From Basidiobolus ranarum (taxonomy: Eukaryota): DNA of 39,414 bases. The notes under the pieces were generated by a model. That model saw nothing but the letters and a program-made list of their open reading frames with translations. It made no database searches and was not told the DNA's origin. The stretch covers positions 1-39,414 of the forward strand of contig JASJQH010000042.1 in assembly GCA_040143965.1 (NCBI GenBank), given 5' to 3'. This document shows positions 1 to 27,109 of this stretch, piece by piece (positions within the stretch are counted from its first letter, which is position 1; each line of letters begins with the position of its first letter). The position numbers were made by a program, and so were the translations under genes.

Positions 1-240
1 AAGTAAATTCCGATTGAGAATAATTGATAATATCTTAGTGAATTACAAGATAACTAAGTACTAAGCTATATATGACTATATAGGTGTTTAGGCAATGCTA
101 ATTTCAACACTAAGTTGGTGTCAATATTCCAAGTAAATTCCTCATGAGATTAATGGATGATATCTTAGTTCATTATAAAATAACTAAGTACTAAGCTATA
201 TATGACTATATAGGTGTTTAGGCAATGCTAATTTCAACAC
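1..240. repeat. 130-bp-period tandem duplication, truncated at window start
   Basis: 51-110 and 181-240 are identical 60-mers (TAACTAAGTA...TTTCAACAC). 1-50 aligns to 131-180 with many substitutions. The core contains the hairpin CTATATA-TGAC-TATATAG. Confidence 0.9.
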
Positions 241-4757: not shown

Positions 4758-5993
4758 ATGTCTTTCAATGACTTGGAAAGAGGACTTGAGCCAGTAAATT
4801 CGAACTTATCTGGGCGCGAGGGTATTTCCTATCTTTAAAATATATTTATGGTCGTTTTTTACTTACAAAGGTCCTGGTTTCTCCTAATATTTAAAGGAAA
4901 TGCTCACTTGGAGTATAAGCAATTAGCACAAAAGGTAGCTCAGAAAACCTATAAAATTACGAGCAATGTTACCTCCATCCAAAGATTGGTAAGTTACATG
5001 GGAACTGTTAGAGATACGCCTACTTCCCGAGATGAATTGTAAGCGAACTTATGTTTTTTTTCTTTTAGAGCTGAATATTCATCATTTTGACTTTATTTAG
5101 ACACAATATTACTGAAACCACCCGAGATTTGGTTAAAGATGTCGGCAATGATATTAAACACCTGGGAACTTACGAGGCAGGCTCACCTCGTGAAGCTGTA
5201 AGTGAAGGATTTTGATTTGATTTTTCATATGTATATATGGTACCAAGCAAAATATTTATGGGTCATTTCTCTTAGAGACAACGTAAACTTGAGCAACAAA
5301 AACTATCAAAAGATTTCCAAAAAGTTCTTGAACAGTTCCAAGCCGCTCAGCGATTGTCAGCCGAGAAATCTCGTGAATTCGTAGATCGCGCGAGAAAACT
5401 TTCAACTCATAATGATGATTAGTAAGTATTTACATAGGTTTGTTGAAATATTACGTACGACTAACCTCTCCTAGTGATGACGAAGATGTAGATGGGGCTC
5501 CAGAAGAGCAACCTCTGATGGGTAACTCTCAAAGAAGGTTACAGATAGAGTTATTATATTAATGTATTAACTTGACGTACTAAACGAAAATAATTTCCCT
5601 ATATTCTAGACTTCAACTTGAAGGCTTAGATAATGAAGTCGAATTTAACGAAAATCTGATTGCTGAACGTGAGGTTGAAATTCGAGAGATCGAACAAGGT
5701 ATAACCGAATTGAACGAAATATTTAGAGATCTTGGAACCATCGTCAATGAGCAGCAGTCACTTCTAGGTACGTATCTAATAGCACTTGTGATTTTTTTTC
5801 ACTCACTCAATTTTGGCTATGTGTAGATAATATTGAAAGCAACGTCACTAACATGGCTGTGCATGTTCGCAATGCCGCTGAAGAGCTTGGCTCAGCAGCC
5901 ACATATCAAAAGAAGGCCCGGAACAAGATGTGTTGCATGCTGTTGATTTTTGCAGTTATTGCAGTCGTCATAGTACTTCTTGCTATTTCATAA
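4758..5993 (+). CDS. PEP12: Qa-SNARE syntaxin of the Pep12/Vam3/STX7-12 type, 7 exons
   Basis: Spliced product MSFNDLERG...QQKLSKDFQKVLEQFQAAQR...IAEREVEIREIEQGITELNEIFRDLGTIVNEQQSLLDNIESN (SNARE motif), then C-terminal TM CCMLLIFAVIAVVIVLLAIS*. All introns GT-AG. Confidence 0.88.
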
Positions 5994-19462: not shown

Positions 19463-20425
19463 TTAAATAAGAATTCGGGAGTAAACGTCATCTCCGATTA
19501 ATGGGACAATCTCCTTCAATTGTTCTTTAACGAAGAGTCGAATCTCCTCAGTAGTTAAAGCAGCAGCACGAAGAATTACACCATCTTCATCACCAATCAC
19601 CGATGCGGACCAAATAGGACTTTGAGGAGGAAGTTTGGAGCTTCTTGGTGAGATGGTGATTTGATTAAATTGTTCAAGAATACTATGGACCAAAGTCTTC
19701 AATTGGGGACCATATAACACCAGGATAGCGTAACATTCATAAGGAGCAACACGATAACCATAATTTGTACGTTGTCCAAAGTGATTCATGGATTGTTTGG
19801 TCTCTTCTGAACGTAATTCATCACCTTCCAATTCTTTCACTCTATGATCATCACGAATAAGCTGAGCGTCACGAAGGACAAGTTTATCATCATGATAAAT
19901 ATTGTTAATGGAGTTATATTCGGCAAATTCCCAGCTTTCTCCTCTACTCATTCTACCACTGGTAAACCAATCGAGTAAAACCAAGGAACCGGTCCCGGAG
20001 AGGCGAAAGTCTTGTGTCTGATGATACATAGCATCTTTGAAGCAGGTCACTTGGTCAGGAAGTAATACTAAGAGGGCATCTTCTTCTATGACATACTTGA
20101 AATGTTGTGCTGAGGCGTCAGTAGAGAGTGGCAGATTAGGGTTTCTCTTTTTGAACACTTTGGTAGAACCTTGAGTGAGCATGGATAATTTGGCACCTTT
20201 CTTTACTGCAACGTCCATGGTGACCACGTCACCGCAAACCAAACCACCACCATAGGTTAAAGAGTAGATTAGAGCGGTCTTTTTCAAGAGAGCAGATGGT
20301 CGGATCAATTTTAAAGGATAACGTGAATGGAAACGGGTTAGGGTGGCGGTTTCTCCTACCAAGGCACACTCAATTTTACCTTGGCCTTGCTCTATAGTAA
20401 TGGTTTTGGAGAGGATTTTAGACAT
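19463..20425 (-). CDS. ureD: Urease accessory protein UreD/UreH (Ure4), intronless
   Basis: YPLKLI, TYGGGLVCGD, LTQGSTKVFK, LLPDQVTCF, LLDWFTSGRMSRGESW and LVLRD. ATG at 20425. Confidence 0.93.
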   Translation of the reverse strand: MSKILSKTITIEQGQGKIECALVGETATLTRFHSRYPLKLIRPSALLKKTALIYSLTYGGGLVCGDVVTMDVAVKKGAKLSMLTQGSTKVFKKRNPNLPLSTDASAQHFKYVIEEDALLVLLPDQVTCFKDAMYHQTQDFRLSGTGSLVLLDWFTSGRMSRGESWEFAEYNSINNIYHDDKLVLRDAQLIRDDHRVKELEGDELRSEETKQSMNHFGQRTNYGYRVAPYECYAILVLYGPQLKTLVHSILEQFNQITISPRSSKLPPQSPIWSASVIGDEDGVILRAAALTTEEIRLFVKEQLKEIVPLIGDDVYSRILI

Positions 20426-21614
20426 GAGGAAAGATAGATATGGACAAGAAGACACGCGGTTAAGATTTCAAGTATTAATCAGTGAGATTTATTGTTGTTC
20501 ATGTGGATTCTTTTATGTAAAAAATCCACCCGGTGGCTAGATTCACTAGATTATAATTGGTAAAAATCATTTACTAAATATGGGAAACATCCATATATAT
20601 ATACTTCACTGAATCTGGTAAAAATATGGAAATCGAATGGGCTCGTTTCCATTTTACCTTGATCATAGAAAATACTGTTTTTAGAAAAGCTGAGTTCAAT
20701 CCCACGAGTATAGGGCTAGCTAGAATAGGGGGAGGGGGAGAGGGAGGGTGGTGAGACAGGGATAATGGAAACAAAACATATGTAGTAAACATACAAGGTG
20801 GCAAGAAATAGGGGTGACAATAGGGATGAGGTATTTACTTAAAAGAAGCTATAGACTCCAAAAGTATATCCTAGCTCAAAATAATCCATTACGTGTACAA
20901 CGGTTTCTGATGGTAAAGAATTGAGCATCAAGCGCTTAGTCAGCTAATCCAGAATATCTCTAAGATTATCAGACTTCATAACTAAACCAACCTCAAGATT
21001 AAGATTATCATCATTTCGCTAGTTGTGCAAGTCCATACCTTATGAATAGTACTAATTAATAGTAGGATAAATATAGAGCGAAATAAAAACATTCCCTAAT
21101 TCAAGTTATCAAATATGATATTCGAAACTTAACTCTCGTATAAATGAGTTTAGCTAGGTTTAATTCCAGTGTTCCTTTAAACAATAACTTGAGATTTAGT
21201 CAATGTAGCAATATTGATACTGGATAGATATAGTTACCAGTAAGAAATATCTATCTTGGGGAGAATATTTGGAATCTGAGTTATTGTGTAGGAATATCAA
21301 GCGAAACTCATTTAAATAACGCGATACTAACCAAATATTTAAACTTGGTTTGAGGAAGAAAATATACGAATTCAACAACAACCATATTTGATCTGTTAAA
21401 GCTGATAGATATTGTTTTTTTCTTCAAAATTCGATCTATTTATTGCACTTACCCCTTGCTTAGATAGACAGGGGACAGTTGAATGGGGTTTTTTTTTCAT
21501 TAAATGATGAGTATATAAGGTTGTTTTTCTTCCTAAGGATAAGTCACTCAAAATCATCGATAGCATTGACAGCGGAGTTGTAAATAGGTAAGTGAGAGAA
21601 AAGTTTATATTAGC

Positions 21615-21703
21615 GAAGTGGATGACGAGACTAAGCACGTCAGTCAGTAAGTTCTTCGGAACAGTGTTGACCCAATTATCTATACCCAAATTTCCGACAC
21701 TTC
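21615..21703 (+). ncRNA. Box C/D snoRNA copy 1 (snR40-like)
   Basis: C box ATGACGA at 21622, variant D box CCGA at 21694-21697, terminal stem GAAGTG/CACTTC. Guide CTATACCCAAATT is antisense to LSU rRNA AAUUUGGGUAUAG. Confidence 0.8.
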
Positions 21704-21825
21704 AATCCTACTTCATTCCTATGACACTTTTATTAATTTTCCCATTTCATAGATTGTAAAATAGCTCTCTGCAAGTTCTTGTCTAATCTGAAGTCAATTA
21801 ATGTAAGTATTTTTTAGTGAAATAA

Positions 21826-21920
21826 TGCATCTAGAATGACGAGACTAAGCACGTCAGTCAGTAAGTTCTTCGGAACGCTGTTGACCCAATTATCTATACC
21901 CAAATTTCTGACTAGATGCA
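21826..21920 (+). ncRNA. Box C/D snoRNA copy 2 (snR40-like)
   Basis: C box ATGACGA at 21836, D box CTGA at 21908-21911, 9-bp stem TGCATCTAG/CTAGATGCA, internal GTTC-TTCG-GAAC hairpin, C'-like TGTTGA. Confidence 0.85.
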
Positions 21921-22048
21921 CAATTCTATTTTTTTTTTCATTCCAACTTATCGTTCTCTCTTCAGGATTTACAGTATGTACATATAAGCGAATTACATCT
22001 GGAGGTTTATGACTTTGTAATGGTAAATATCTTTCATTATGTGAATTG

Positions 22049-22137
22049 TATGCGAATGACGAGACTAAGCACGTCAGTCAGTAAGTTCCTCGGAACGCTG
22101 TTGACCCAATTATCTATACCCAAATTTCTGACGCATA
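22049..22137 (+). ncRNA. Box C/D snoRNA copy 3 (snR40-like)
   Basis: C box at 22056, D box CTGA at 22128-22131, stem TATGCG/CGCATA, same guides as copies 1 and 2. Confidence 0.85.
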
Positions 22138-23925
22138 TTTAAACATTATCCAACACTTATTCATCTTGCTAATTACTTTCAATTAGTTTCCTTATAGGCA
22201 TCACAAATAAATAAATCATTTAAACCAAACTATTGATCATTATCTTTTTGTTAATCAACCATCATGGAAATATAGAATGTGTATTCGCTATTGATAAGCA
22301 GTGATAGCTTTAAACAAGCTTAAATTATAATTATCAATGTCTTACAATATTTCTTTTCGACATCAGCAGCTAGTGTTTAAAATCAGGGTCTTATAGTTAG
22401 TTGTATGTATAATCATTTAATCGGATGGAGCTATTGCAATTATCCATCAAGTTTCAGTAAATACAAAATTAGAAAATGGAATTACTATTACCAATATTTC
22501 TGAATATGCATAGATGAGAAGTGTAATGGAGTATTTATTTCGGCACCTTGTTCATCTAGAGATATACTTGGATTATAGAGCATCGATAGTTAATGATGTG
22601 TCTCATTTTAGCATAGATATCTTGATTCGTTTGTTGCTGATTTCTTGTATGTGCTTCTAATTATCTACTCTTGACTTGGCTAATAAGAATAATCACTGAA
22701 CAGTAGACATAATTTATATCAGTACATACCGCAACTGTATTCCGATGCAGTCATGCATTAAACTCTTGTTTGAATAGAATAAACTAGCTAACCCTAATTA
22801 TCAAAGATATCGTAGGGGTACGAGAAAAGCCACATCGCTTGCAATCACGATTTCTCATCTTGGTAAGTTTGAACCAAGAGATTTTTTAGATATACCGAAA
22901 TGAAAGGCTTTCACTACATGTGAGTTAGTTGACTTGAGTTATCTTTTACTTGACCCAGGTTTACGCGTTTTTTTGCCACTAATTTTTGGAATAATTATAT
23001 CGATGATATATAAATGGTTAAATCATATCGTAATATTTACTAACTACTAAAGGAATTTCTCTTCAAAAATGGTAATGAACTTATCGATCGGGAGAGTACA
23101 ACTCCAAGTCTAACCCAGCTTTGGAGGCTCTATGGGAGACATGTTGAGGACCACCCCCTAATTATACCTTCGTTATTCGATACTAGATTTGATATGAACT
23201 GAAGTACTAGTCGCTCATGTGCATGTGGGAAGACATTTAACGACAGCATTTGGTTCCAAGTCACTTCCGTTGGTAAACAGAAAACCGGATTTTCACATGA
23301 CAATTATCGATCCTTCCGTAGCATATCGTAATGGAAATAAGATTGGTGACTGATTTAAAATTTACCAGGATATTATCAGCTTGTATGATTACCCTCAGGG
23401 GAAAAAAAAAGCAAAGTTATTCCTTGGTGATGGAATCCATATATAGATTCCTCATAGCAACAAATACGAATGAAAACATGGAAGTTATACATGCTAATAA
23501 ATGTAGCGAAAGACTGGCGTATTTAAGGGGCGAATCCCAATGCAGTAACAATGATAATTCTTCTTTCTTGGCTCATTGTCAAAACTTGACGAAATCCCCT
23601 AAATCTGTACAATCGCTGCACTGAGAATGGGTGTCTGTACTATATTTGGTGAAAAAATAAATTTGAATGTTGCACAAACACTGCAGCTGGTCATATTGCC
23701 AACGGTCATGATTAAAATGCTATATTATATCTATATTGGTACATGTCGATGATGGTTCGGGACCTGAGTTCGATCACGAACATTCCAACCTAATTAGGTT
23801 GATATGTAGAGATTGGATGAGATTGGTTCCGGTGTAACCGAAACCCTATATAATGAGAACAAGTAGCCAAGAATACAGCACCAAAAGAATTCTCTCGCTT
23901 CTCCCACTATATATATATTTTTACC

Positions 23926-24180
23926 ATGGGTTGTGTTCCTTGCTTGCAACGTCCTTCACAGTACCAACCTTTAGATTCTTCAGAGACGAAGTTTGAGACT
24001 TTTCGCTCGACACAATATCTTCCTCCGAGAAACTCCTCTTTAATCAATACTACAGCGATGCCATATAGCTGCGACAAGTCAGGAGCTATCCAAAACCGCT
24101 CGAATCTACCACGATTCGAAGAAATGCTTCAAAACGATTTCATTGTACGCATTACACTGACTCCAAACGTTGCCATGTAA
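23926..24180 (+). CDS. 84-aa microprotein, predicted N-myristoylated/palmitoylated (MGCVPC); paralogue of 25395-25658
   Basis: Good start context (ACCATGG), upstream TATATAA at ~23846, and clear protein similarity to the convergent ORF. Confidence 0.75.
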   Translation: MGCVPCLQRPSQYQPLDSSETKFETFRSTQYLPPRNSSLINTTAMPYSCDKSGAIQNRSNLPRFEEMLQNDFIVRITLTPNVAM

Positions 24181-25394: not shown

Positions 25395-25658
25395 CTATCT
25401 AGCAATGGCTGGTGTGATTCTAACTCGGACTACATCGTTGTTCTCTAACATTTGTTCAAACTTGGGTAAGTTGTGTCGGTCTTGTAAAGTCCCATCAGGA
25501 TTGCATTTATATACTAATCGATGGTTCTGACGAAGCGAATCCCTTCTTGGTGGAGGTAGTATCTTTTTGTAGCTAGATTGTACCATCTTTTCCGTCTCTG
25601 AAGTCTCCAGGAGTTGATAGTTGCTGAAAGGAAATTTGAAGCATGAAATGCAAACCAT
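25395..25658 (-). CDS. 87-aa microprotein (MVCISC...); paralogue of 23926-24180
   Basis: Aligned motifs YQxLxxSET, LPP(P)RxxSL, YxCxxxGxxQxRxNLPxFExMLxN and VR(I/V)x(L/I)TP. TATATAAA lies just upstream on the minus strand (~25700). Confidence 0.75.
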   Translation of the reverse strand: MVCISCFKFPFSNYQLLETSETEKMVQSSYKKILPPPRRDSLRQNHRLVYKCNPDGTLQDRHNLPKFEQMLENNDVVRVRITPAIAR

Positions 25659-27109
25659 TTTTTGTTGATGTACCGTAGACGGAGTTCCAAGTAAGTTCAT
25701 TTATATATCATAGAGCCTGAGTGGTAACCTACAAATTCGGTCATCATCCATATATGGTAACAGTACTCTTACACGAATAACATCATTATTATAAAACACG
25801 CTAGGTTCTTTGTCATGGTAGGAATGGTGCTGATGATGGCTCAGAGGGGCAATTGAGCCAATAATCTTTTATACATCATAGCTAGCCTTAATCAGAATAG
25901 TTAAATTGAATCCTCATTTTTATGTTCATGTTGATTCTATCATTCTAATTGTCACGAATTTTCTAGCCGATCATGAGCCGATCACTATCCACCTTCCACT
26001 TGTTTCTTATTAATCCGTACCATTGACACGTAGCTATGCAGAGAGCAGATTACGTGTCGAGAGCTCTGAAACTTAAGGTTAAACATATCTGGTTCATTTG
26101 GGGGAGGTATATGTAGTTGGAACTAGAGTCAGATAGAGACGATTTCAGCATGTCATTAGAAAAGTTTACTCACTCAACTGGAAGAGTTCCTTCCTTTTAC
26201 ATCGTCACCATATATTTTGTCATCATGCTGGGATAGCTATTTGAACTTTGGTACTTTTTTCGTTGAGAGTAGTTTTGTCAATGGGCGGACGGAGTATTTC
26301 CGAATTACATTGAAATTCAATCACCTGCATTTCCTAGAATTTCATTCAGCATTGGCGTAGTTTTGTTAAAGCAGTTGGAGTCTACATTCGACTTCTAAAT
26401 AGGTATATAACTTGTTTGTAACATTCTACCGCACCGTAACACACTTGTTCACAACTGAATCCAAGGACAAGAATGGCAAATTGAGAGCAGATGGAATTTC
26501 TTTAGTGAAATAAACGAATGTCATACCGGTAATCTTATCAAAAACGATAAAAAACCATGTGTCCTTTCCTTAATTCATACATTTTTAAGAAGTGATTGAA
26601 TTTGGTAGTTCAATCTTATCTAAAACCTCTTCCAATTTGAAGCGTATTACCAAGAGTAGCGCTCATATTGGTGTAACCCGAGGCAGTTGTTCCCTTTGAT
26701 CGTCGATTAATTTATTGATCAACGACGTATTTTTTGGGCGAATAATAATAATCTTTTGGTATGCATATTTATTTGCATGCACATATTGGGGATAACCATA
26801 CGAACAAATATGGTAATAATGTTCGGTTTTTGCATAGTGACCATGGATGTTGCAAATGTAGAGTTAAGTACTGAAGTTTTCTATTGATAAGAAAGTTCTT
26901 ACAAATAGAATGGATTGGACTCCAATTCAATATATTCTATACAGGTGGGCTGCATGTTTTACATCAAAAATAAGTTGTTTTATTGACAATAATCTCGAAA
27001 AGCTAATAGTATTATATCCAGTAAATAATGAGTTCGTGAATGCAGAAGCGTGTACATAGTGGTACTAACAGACATAACAAATCCTTGTTTATCCCAAAAT
27101 TGATTTTCG

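Follow-up and report, generated by a model that had tools for sequence, protein, structure and literature searches.

A predicted non-coding host gene with an snR40-like box C/D snoRNA in each of three introns in Basidiobolus ranarum

In this study, we describe a three-unit repeat in a 39,414-nt stretch of DNA from Basidiobolus ranarum (contig JASJQH010000042.1 of assembly GCA_040143965.1, positions 1 to 39,414; hereafter the window). Judged from its boxes, terminal stem, ribosomal RNA (rRNA) guide and best Rfam match, the core of the repeat is a box C/D small nucleolar RNA (snoRNA) of the yeast snR40 kind. Moreover, it is likely, as read from the sequence, that the locus as a whole is a small self-contained non-coding host gene of ~0.7 kb in an intron-rich eukaryote, probably transcribed by RNA polymerase II, which carries one snoRNA copy in each of three introns of ~164 nt. 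A snoRNA host gene was also what the original prediction had proposed for this locus, and that interpretation is supported by the identity of the snoRNA, by the register of the splice boundaries, by the geometry of the orthologues and by exons free of open reading frames (ORFs). The locus is a clean example of an arrangement familiar from fungi and animals and leaves current understanding unchanged, while an identity is given to a stretch that would otherwise resemble an odd repeat.

The repeat core and its rRNA target

A repeat search of positions 21000-22800 returned a single family of three 79-nt direct-repeat copies on the plus strand (21620-21698, 21834-21912 and 22054-22132), which start 214 and 220 nt apart and are 95%, 100% and 99% identical, in this order, to the middle copy taken as the reference. 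It is the same repeat that had been reported before as a 77-bp unit at 21622, 21836 and 22056, counted from the ATGA of the C box. When the three units were compared in register, their cores agreed pairwise at 74-78 of 79 positions (94-99%), whereas identity between the flanks was 8-15 of 31 positions upstream, 13-17 of 53 downstream and 9-16 of 45 in the following exon, against a chance expectation of 28%. The spacers, previously called unrelated, are therefore at chance identity (26-32% between the flanks of the units); the exception is the 15/31 upstream of copies 2 and 3, and what likeness persists is confined to roughly the first twelve bases of introns 2 and 3. When three mismatches were allowed, 26 nt of the core occurred at three places only in the window (none of 100 shuffles gave a match), and the same is true of the 18-nt guide plus D box, for which no shuffle reached three matches either. 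Low-stringency blastn of the window revealed no further significant copies. A decayed fourth copy was considered at 22479-22503 (AATTACTATTACCAATATTTCTGA), where 25 nt lying ~370 nt after copy 3 resemble the guide and D box, and was rejected as not significant, its local alignment score of 28.0 being matched by the top scores of unrelated sequence elsewhere in the window. Arrays of clustered regularly interspaced short palindromic repeats (CRISPR) are prokaryotic and have repeats of ~23-47 nt, spacers of similar size and cas genes nearby. With a repeat of 79 nt, spacers of 135-141 nt and a eukaryotic context with spliceosomal introns, a CRISPR array was rejected for this locus.

In box C/D snoRNAs, a C box resembling RUGAUGA lies close to the 5' end and a D box, CUGA, close to the 3' end, a consensus that is also visible in the Rfam alignment. 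The boxes are joined by a terminal stem, an antisense element of at least 10 nt immediately before the D box complements rRNA with a methylated nucleotide opposite its fifth position, and the mature product is a stable RNA of ~70-120 nt to which fibrillarin/Nop1, Nop56, Nop58 and Snu13 bind. Each unit of the repeat has one C box ATGACGA, starting at 21622, 21836 and 22056, and a D box, which is CTGA in copy 2 (21908-21911) and copy 3 (22128) and the variant CCGA in copy 1 (21694-21697). Directly outside the boxes lie perfect terminal stems of 6, 9 and 6 bp, namely GAAGTG/CACTTC in copy 1 (21615-21620 and 21698-21703), TGCATCTAG/CTAGATGCA in copy 2 (21826-21834 and 21912-21920) and TATGCG/CGCATA in copy 3 (22049-22054 and 22132-22137), all on the plus strand. 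That the stems differ in sequence and nevertheless pair perfectly had been noted before, and all three are present in the minimum-free-energy folds of their copies; three unlike stem sequences that all pair are the outcome expected from selection on a terminal stem. With their stems the predicted snoRNAs extend over 21615-21703, 21826-21920 and 22049-22137. In copy 1, the element of the D' region occupies 21635-21643 and the D guide 21680-21693. Copy 2, which has a fold z-score of -2.84, contains GCACGTCAG at 21849-21857, a putative D' box CAGT at 21859-21862, a hairpin GTTC-TTCG-GAAC at 21865-21876, a putative C' box TGTTGA at 21879-21884 and the D guide at 21894-21907, so that in the RNA the internal hairpin GUUC-UUCG-GAAC sits between the second antisense element and the C'-like UGUUGA. 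Copy 3 differs from copy 2 by one base, which changes the hairpin loop from TTCG to CTCG. Besides the D box of copy 1, the copies vary in the hairpin loop, in the spacer that precedes C' and at one base ahead of the C box.

In a relaxed Rfam scan of 1 kb, the three best matches were the three copies against snR40 (RF01201), with E values of 7e-4 to 5e-3. The alignment spans the model from end to end, and the C box and the guide with its D box are nearly identical to the consensus, while the D' region aligns with gaps. No other credible RNA was found beside the three copies in a relaxed scan of positions 20400-23900.

The search for an rRNA target used large subunit (LSU) rRNA from the eukaryotic ribosomal DNA (rDNA) of organisms other than B. 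ranarum. A gapped pattern composed of the reverse complements of both antisense elements was run over a prokaryote genome collection and gave 44 loci, with the two complements 13 nt apart in 44/44; Rfam confirmed eukaryotic LSU rRNA in all four of the loci tested, and one locus, L130, is a full rDNA unit. The longest complementarity between the snoRNA and this rDNA unit is formed by the D guide, which makes an uninterrupted duplex of 15 pairs (14 Watson-Crick) with LSU 896-910; U900 is the partner of the fifth nucleotide counted upstream from the D box. The L130 nucleotides G869, A878 and U900 are spaced by 9 and 22 nt, exactly as are Gm867, Am876 and Um898 of yeast 25S rRNA, which are guided by snR50, snR72 and snR40, respectively (PMC5199042). 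This agreement in spacing, taken together with the fifth-nucleotide pairing, marks the D guide as a Um898 guide, which is the function of snR40; by the same pairing, the 14-nt D guide is predicted to direct 2'-O-methylation of the LSU uridine equivalent to yeast 25S Um898. The rRNA of viral contigs was also tried as a target and rejected, since a scan for the complement of the D guide gave 116 loci that were all chance matches in unrelated sequence. With regard to the 44 short contigs themselves (L117-L160), they are filed as bacterial or archaeal assemblies or metagenome-assembled genomes and carry eukaryotic LSU rDNA, that is, contamination (Rfam-confirmed in 4/4 tested). Three of these loci (L130, L132 and L139) belong to a single 24-kb contig in which the rDNA unit is repeated three times, and the LSU rRNA gene of L130 contains a group I intron at 5464-5806 (RF00028, 109.5 bits).

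The second antisense element, GCACGUCAG, stands in the position of a D' guide and perfectly complements LSU 875-883 of L130, 13 nt upstream of the D target on the same strand. A complement of at least 9 nt anywhere in the rRNA was reached by 392 of 2000 shuffles, and at least 9 Watson-Crick pairs within 60 nt of the D target by 88 of 20,000 shuffles of the D' region; the former is thus unremarkable and the latter rare. If CAGU, the tetramer aligned to the Rfam D' box, is taken as the D' box, the fifth-nucleotide rule leads to A878, the equivalent of Am876. The D' guide of yeast snR40 targets Gm1271 and Gm562 of 18S rRNA (PMC4344503; PMC5824354); a snoRNA scan against the small subunit rRNA of L130 found no complement to 18S at these sites. 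It has been reported that elements in the second guide position that pair beside the methylation site raise methylation up to five-fold, and snR40 is listed among them (van Nues et al., 2011; PMC3116282). The element of the window is like these in being a conserved element at the second guide position that complements rRNA near a methylation site, and it may have such an effect. From its sequence, GCACGUCAG would either guide methylation at the Am876 equivalent through a degenerate D' box or serve as accessory pairing that strengthens the Um898 interaction.

Predicted introns, host gene and orthologues

Each copy is enclosed by its own predicted plus-strand intron. Intron 1 (21588..21752) runs from GTAAGT to TAG over 165 nt and has a TTAAT branch-like motif, intron 2 (21803..21965) runs from GTAAGT to CAG over 163 nt, and intron 3 (22023..22186) runs from GTAAAT to TAG over 164 nt with a GCTAAT branch-like motif. 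GT-AG intervals of these lengths had been described before and were recovered when re-read and recomputed from the sequence; the accompanying spacings of 33-34 nt for the C box and 54-55 nt for the D box also agree with direct reading, the distance from the donor to the C-box ATGA being 34, 33 and 33 nt and that from the end of the D box to the acceptor 55, 54 and 55 nt. A TTAAT, CTTAT or GCTAAT motif precedes each acceptor by 13-25 nt. Donor hexamers and acceptors recur at matching positions of all three units, although the surrounding flanks are otherwise at chance identity, and we argue on this ground that they are under selection. For comparison, the introns of neighbouring coding genes, a hand-picked set of the shortest in-frame GT...AG candidates joining neighbouring ORFs in the window, measure 52-66 nt, with GTAAGT, GTACGT, GTATGT and GTGAGT as donors (GTRNGT type) and CTAAT, TTAAT and CTGAC as branch motifs (CTRAY or TTAAT). 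A host intron is as long as such a minimal intron to which the ~90 nt of a snoRNA and its stems have been added.

The rest of the host gene model, likewise on the plus strand, begins with a candidate TATA box TATATAAG at 21512..21519, ~70 nt upstream of the first donor, where it could act as a promoter element. Predicted exon 1 (21545..21587) has a guessed 5' end and a 3' end set by the donor at 21588, and contains no ATG. It would be followed by the non-coding exons 2 (21753..21802, 50 nt) and 3 (21966..22022, 57 nt), and by a last exon of presumed extent (22187..22235) with overlapping AATAAA motifs at 22206-22215. Host genes of the UHG/GAS5 type have a Pol II promoter and a spliced, polyadenylated RNA (5'TOP in vertebrates), and the TATA-like and AATAAA motifs are candidate signals of this kind. 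With a start assumed near 21545, the spliced model measures ~199 nt and its longest ATG-initiated ORF has 8 codons, in keeping with the earlier description of the exons as ORF-free; the exons are not conserved between units. An antisense frame of 101 codons (21399-21701, minus strand) has no Pfam match. Following what is established for intronic snoRNAs, the spliced lariat would be debranched, and exonucleases would trim it to a small nucleolar ribonucleoprotein (snoRNP) core whose limits are set by the C/D boxes and the terminal stem particular to each copy, giving an RNA of ~80-90 nt, whereas the short spliced exons would have no coding role.

A metagenome scan for the C-box motif followed 46-76 nt on by the same guide and D box gave 50 loci, which represent 46 distinct contexts and 22 clusters at 90% identity. 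Of the 46 contexts, 32 have a GTRNGT hexamer no farther than 60 nt upstream of the C box, compared to 73 of 920 control positions, and in 31 of these 32 contexts its distance is 25-34 nt. In the 14 clusters that carry the D' element GAATCGCTAC, the donor hexamer stands 25-34 nt before the C box in 13, and a YAG follows the D box at 46-61 nt wherever the available downstream sequence holds a YAG, although this figure is flattered because the YAG nearest to 53 nt was taken. The introns predicted for the orthologues are 147-184 nt long, mostly 158-169. The values for the window (33-34, 54-55 and 163-165 nt) lie inside these ranges, indicating that the fixed geometry is real but belongs to the whole family. 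Hence the fixed geometry to which the original prediction drew attention holds, but it is not peculiar to this locus, as it recurs in 13/14 clusters of GAATCGCTAC-type orthologues. Five further clusters have the D' guide of budding yeast; in none of them is a donor hexamer found within 60 nt (0/5, with one at 76 nt), and as a rule their YAG does not fall in the 46-61 nt range. Only yeast-type orthologues passed the snR40 gathering threshold of Rfam (4 of the 18 metagenome loci tested, at 57.8-100.4 bits). In the same 18 orthologue loci no other snoRNA family reached gathering level, so that mixed clusters were not shown there. Junction-spanning ORFs in the orthologue contexts are mostly short (20-113 codons at the acceptor nearest to the common geometry), which is not decisive with respect to a coding host. 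For poorly annotated fungal genomes, the geometry offers an annotation rule, with a donor 25-34 nt before the C box, an acceptor 46-61 nt after the D box and an intron of ~150-170 nt.

The closest counterpart to the arrangement of the window is locus L180, in which two tandem copies 243 nt apart each lie in a GTATGT or GTAGGT...CAG interval, separated by an exon of 17 nt. The donor is 32 nt before the C box, a YAG is 52-54 nt after the D box and the predicted introns are ~165 nt, so that L180 shares with the window the D guide, the predicted intron length, a similar spacing and a very short exon between copies. Unlike in the window, the flanks of the L180 units are nearly identical, which points to a recent duplication and to a younger version of the three-copy arrangement; moreover, its GAATCGCTAC-type D' element complements the Gm867 stretch, whereas that of the window complements the Am876 stretch. 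As for GAATCGCTAC itself, it is found in most of the intron-type orthologues (L163-L210), where it is followed by U and UCGA; it complements LSU just upstream of the D' target of the window, and the fifth-nucleotide rule assigns it to the equivalent of Gm867. The difference between the targets of GAATCGCTAC and of the window's element indicates that the second guide moves among neighbouring sites of one rRNA region across lineages.

Alternative explanations and origin of the three copies

Several observations weigh against the reading of the locus as a host gene for an snR40-type snoRNA. At gathering thresholds, Rfam gave no match anywhere in the window. An Rfam comparison had been suggested as a check for this locus, and its outcome is divided: snR40 is the best match, but the scores of 27.7 bits for copy 1 and 31.6 bits for each of copies 2 and 3 are under the curated gathering threshold of 50. 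This sub-threshold score is explained by the orthologues, among which only the yeast-type ones pass. Copy 1, which has the CCGA D box and, at 21663-21664, AG for GC, a change that abolishes an extended internal pairing which copies 2 and 3 are predicted to form, may be impaired, weaker or decaying. The reading of GCACGUCAG as a D' guide is weak, since the duplex has 9 bp only and the putative D' box CAGU is without the usual GA. In addition, intron 3 has a weaker donor, GTAAAT, and a second possible acceptor AG 11 nt on, at 22196-22197, and a TATAAG-like motif in exon 3 might give copy 3 a promoter of its own.

One alternative is that the snoRNAs are real but unspliced, being derived from a polycistronic or independently promoted cluster by endonuclease cutting and exonuclease trimming, as in the clusters of budding yeast and plants, and that the GT...AG intervals are incidental. 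The orthologues of the budding-yeast D' type, which have no donor-like hexamer within 60 nt in any of their five clusters (one has it at 76 nt), suggest that this snoRNA family can be expressed without introns, the TATAAG-like motif lies in the spacer before copy 3, and long terminal stems such as the 9 bp of copy 2 could be processing signals. However, incidental donors and acceptors are difficult to reconcile with their identical registers in three units whose flanks are at chance identity, with the same geometry in 13/14 clusters of intron-type orthologues and with branch-like motifs that stand 13-25 nt before each acceptor as they do in the coding-gene introns of the window, and we regard an unspliced cluster as unlikely. 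Nor do we give much credence to the introns being part of some longer RNA, such as the 5' leader of a protein-coding gene farther on. Both transcript ends are predicted, AATAAA motifs are common at 36% G+C, and ~1.7 kb without a recognised gene is followed by a small ORF from near 23926, all of which would suit a longer transcript. The TATA-like box before the first donor and the overlapping AATAAA ~20 nt after the last acceptor argue against it, no ORF with a Pfam match occurs within 1.6 kb downstream, and the orthologue contexts are mostly without long junction-spanning ORFs.

That the repeat is non-functional, whether a minisatellite, fragments of mobile elements or snoRNA pseudogenes, appears very improbable. 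The changed D box of copy 1 would agree with such an origin, and the search for dispersed copies covered the 39-kb window. Against it, three copies only are found in these 39 kb, and their conserved cores within randomised flanks are the opposite of what a young repeat would present. Each copy, furthermore, has a compensating terminal stem, the fifth-nucleotide rule places the guide on an rRNA site that is methylated and conserved, and orthologues exist at 50 metagenome loci.

With the host gene as the preferred reading, the most likely origin of the three copies is a tandem duplication of units made up of an intron and an exon, for which L180 is a precedent; common descent is no longer visible in the flanks of the window copies. 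Outside the boxes and guides, the core mostly varies freely between species, and the cores within the array differ at only 1-5 of 79 positions despite saturated flanks. Selection alone is therefore an unlikely cause of their likeness, and gene conversion confined to the core is most likely what homogenised the copies after duplication and keeps them alike, while we infer that constraint on the flanks is limited to splice signals, spacing and stem pairing. Alike cores, randomised flanks and three unlike pairing stems together make the locus a compact case for the homogenisation of snoRNA paralogues and for selection on host introns.

It is tempting to join these observations into a single account, which we put forward tentatively and hold to be less probable than not. 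The ~165-nt snoRNA intron would be an old, size-constrained unit, with ~31 nt between donor and snoRNA and ~53 nt between snoRNA and acceptor, that has been kept across distant fungi because snoRNP assembly depends on position in the intron. In the lineage of B. ranarum the unit would have been triplicated, gene conversion would stop exactly at the terminal stems, which evolve by compensation, and the D' guide would have switched from 18S rRNA, its target in yeast, or from Gm867, its target in other fungi, to the neighbourhood of Am876. If this were true, a single RNA would direct methylation at two positions of one rRNA strand that are separated by 22 nt.

Relation to known snoRNA systems and genomic neighbourhood

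The snoRNA of the window resembles yeast snR40 (RF01201; family CD_43 as described in 'The fungal snoRNAome', PMC5824354) in its ATGACGA C box, in its near-identical guide and D box and in its target, the equivalent of Um898. It differs from yeast snR40 in that it is without the 18S D' guide, has 79 nt as compared to a model of 93 nt, lies in predicted introns and is present in three copies. With yeast snR72, the guide for 25S Am876, it would have a predicted target in common if CAGU is the D' box, a likeness in the predicted target alone. That the second antisense element varies by lineage within the same rRNA neighbourhood fits the guide reshuffling reported for fungal snoRNAs; according to a study on Neurospora crassa, guide elements have been separated and recombined during fungal evolution (PMC2780460), and the D' switch of the window snoRNA is consistent with this.

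With respect to the host, the same study describes UHG-like non-coding hosts in N. crassa that were verified by reverse transcription PCR, contain one C/D snoRNA per intron and were likened to mammalian UHG and gas5 (PMC2780460). The predicted gene of B. ranarum shares with the hosts described there one box C/D snoRNA per predicted intron, canonical splice signals and exons with short ORFs only. It stands in contrast to them in that those hosts are described as clusters of different snoRNAs conserved with yeast clusters, whereas a single snoRNA is repeated three times here in a gene of ~0.7 kb. Another parallel is found in mammalian arrays of the SNORD115/116 type, in which the same C/D snoRNA is repeated, one per intron of a repetitive non-coding host. 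The SNORD115/116 arrays are imprinted, run to tens of copies and are not known to target rRNA; unlike them, the locus of B. ranarum has three copies and a canonical rRNA guide. Keyword searches of the literature, in which the supplementary tables of fungal snoRNA surveys were not included, returned no description of this locus or of a three-copy host of an snR40-type snoRNA, and a keyword search on snoRNA host genes in Mucoromycota found nothing relevant.

The nearest recognised gene is the UreD urease accessory gene on the minus strand (19466-20467). Just upstream of the TATA-like box, positions 21453-21499 hold the inverted repeat CCCCT...AGGGG, after which come GGGG and nine consecutive T. 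Farther downstream, two small ORFs in opposite orientation (23857-24177 on the plus strand and 25398-25700 on the minus strand) encode paralogous proteins of ~85-100 amino acids. The two proteins, neither of which belongs to a Pfam family, are 41% identical over 86 amino acids (E 3e-21) and have the motif NLP(R/K)FE(E/Q)ML in common.

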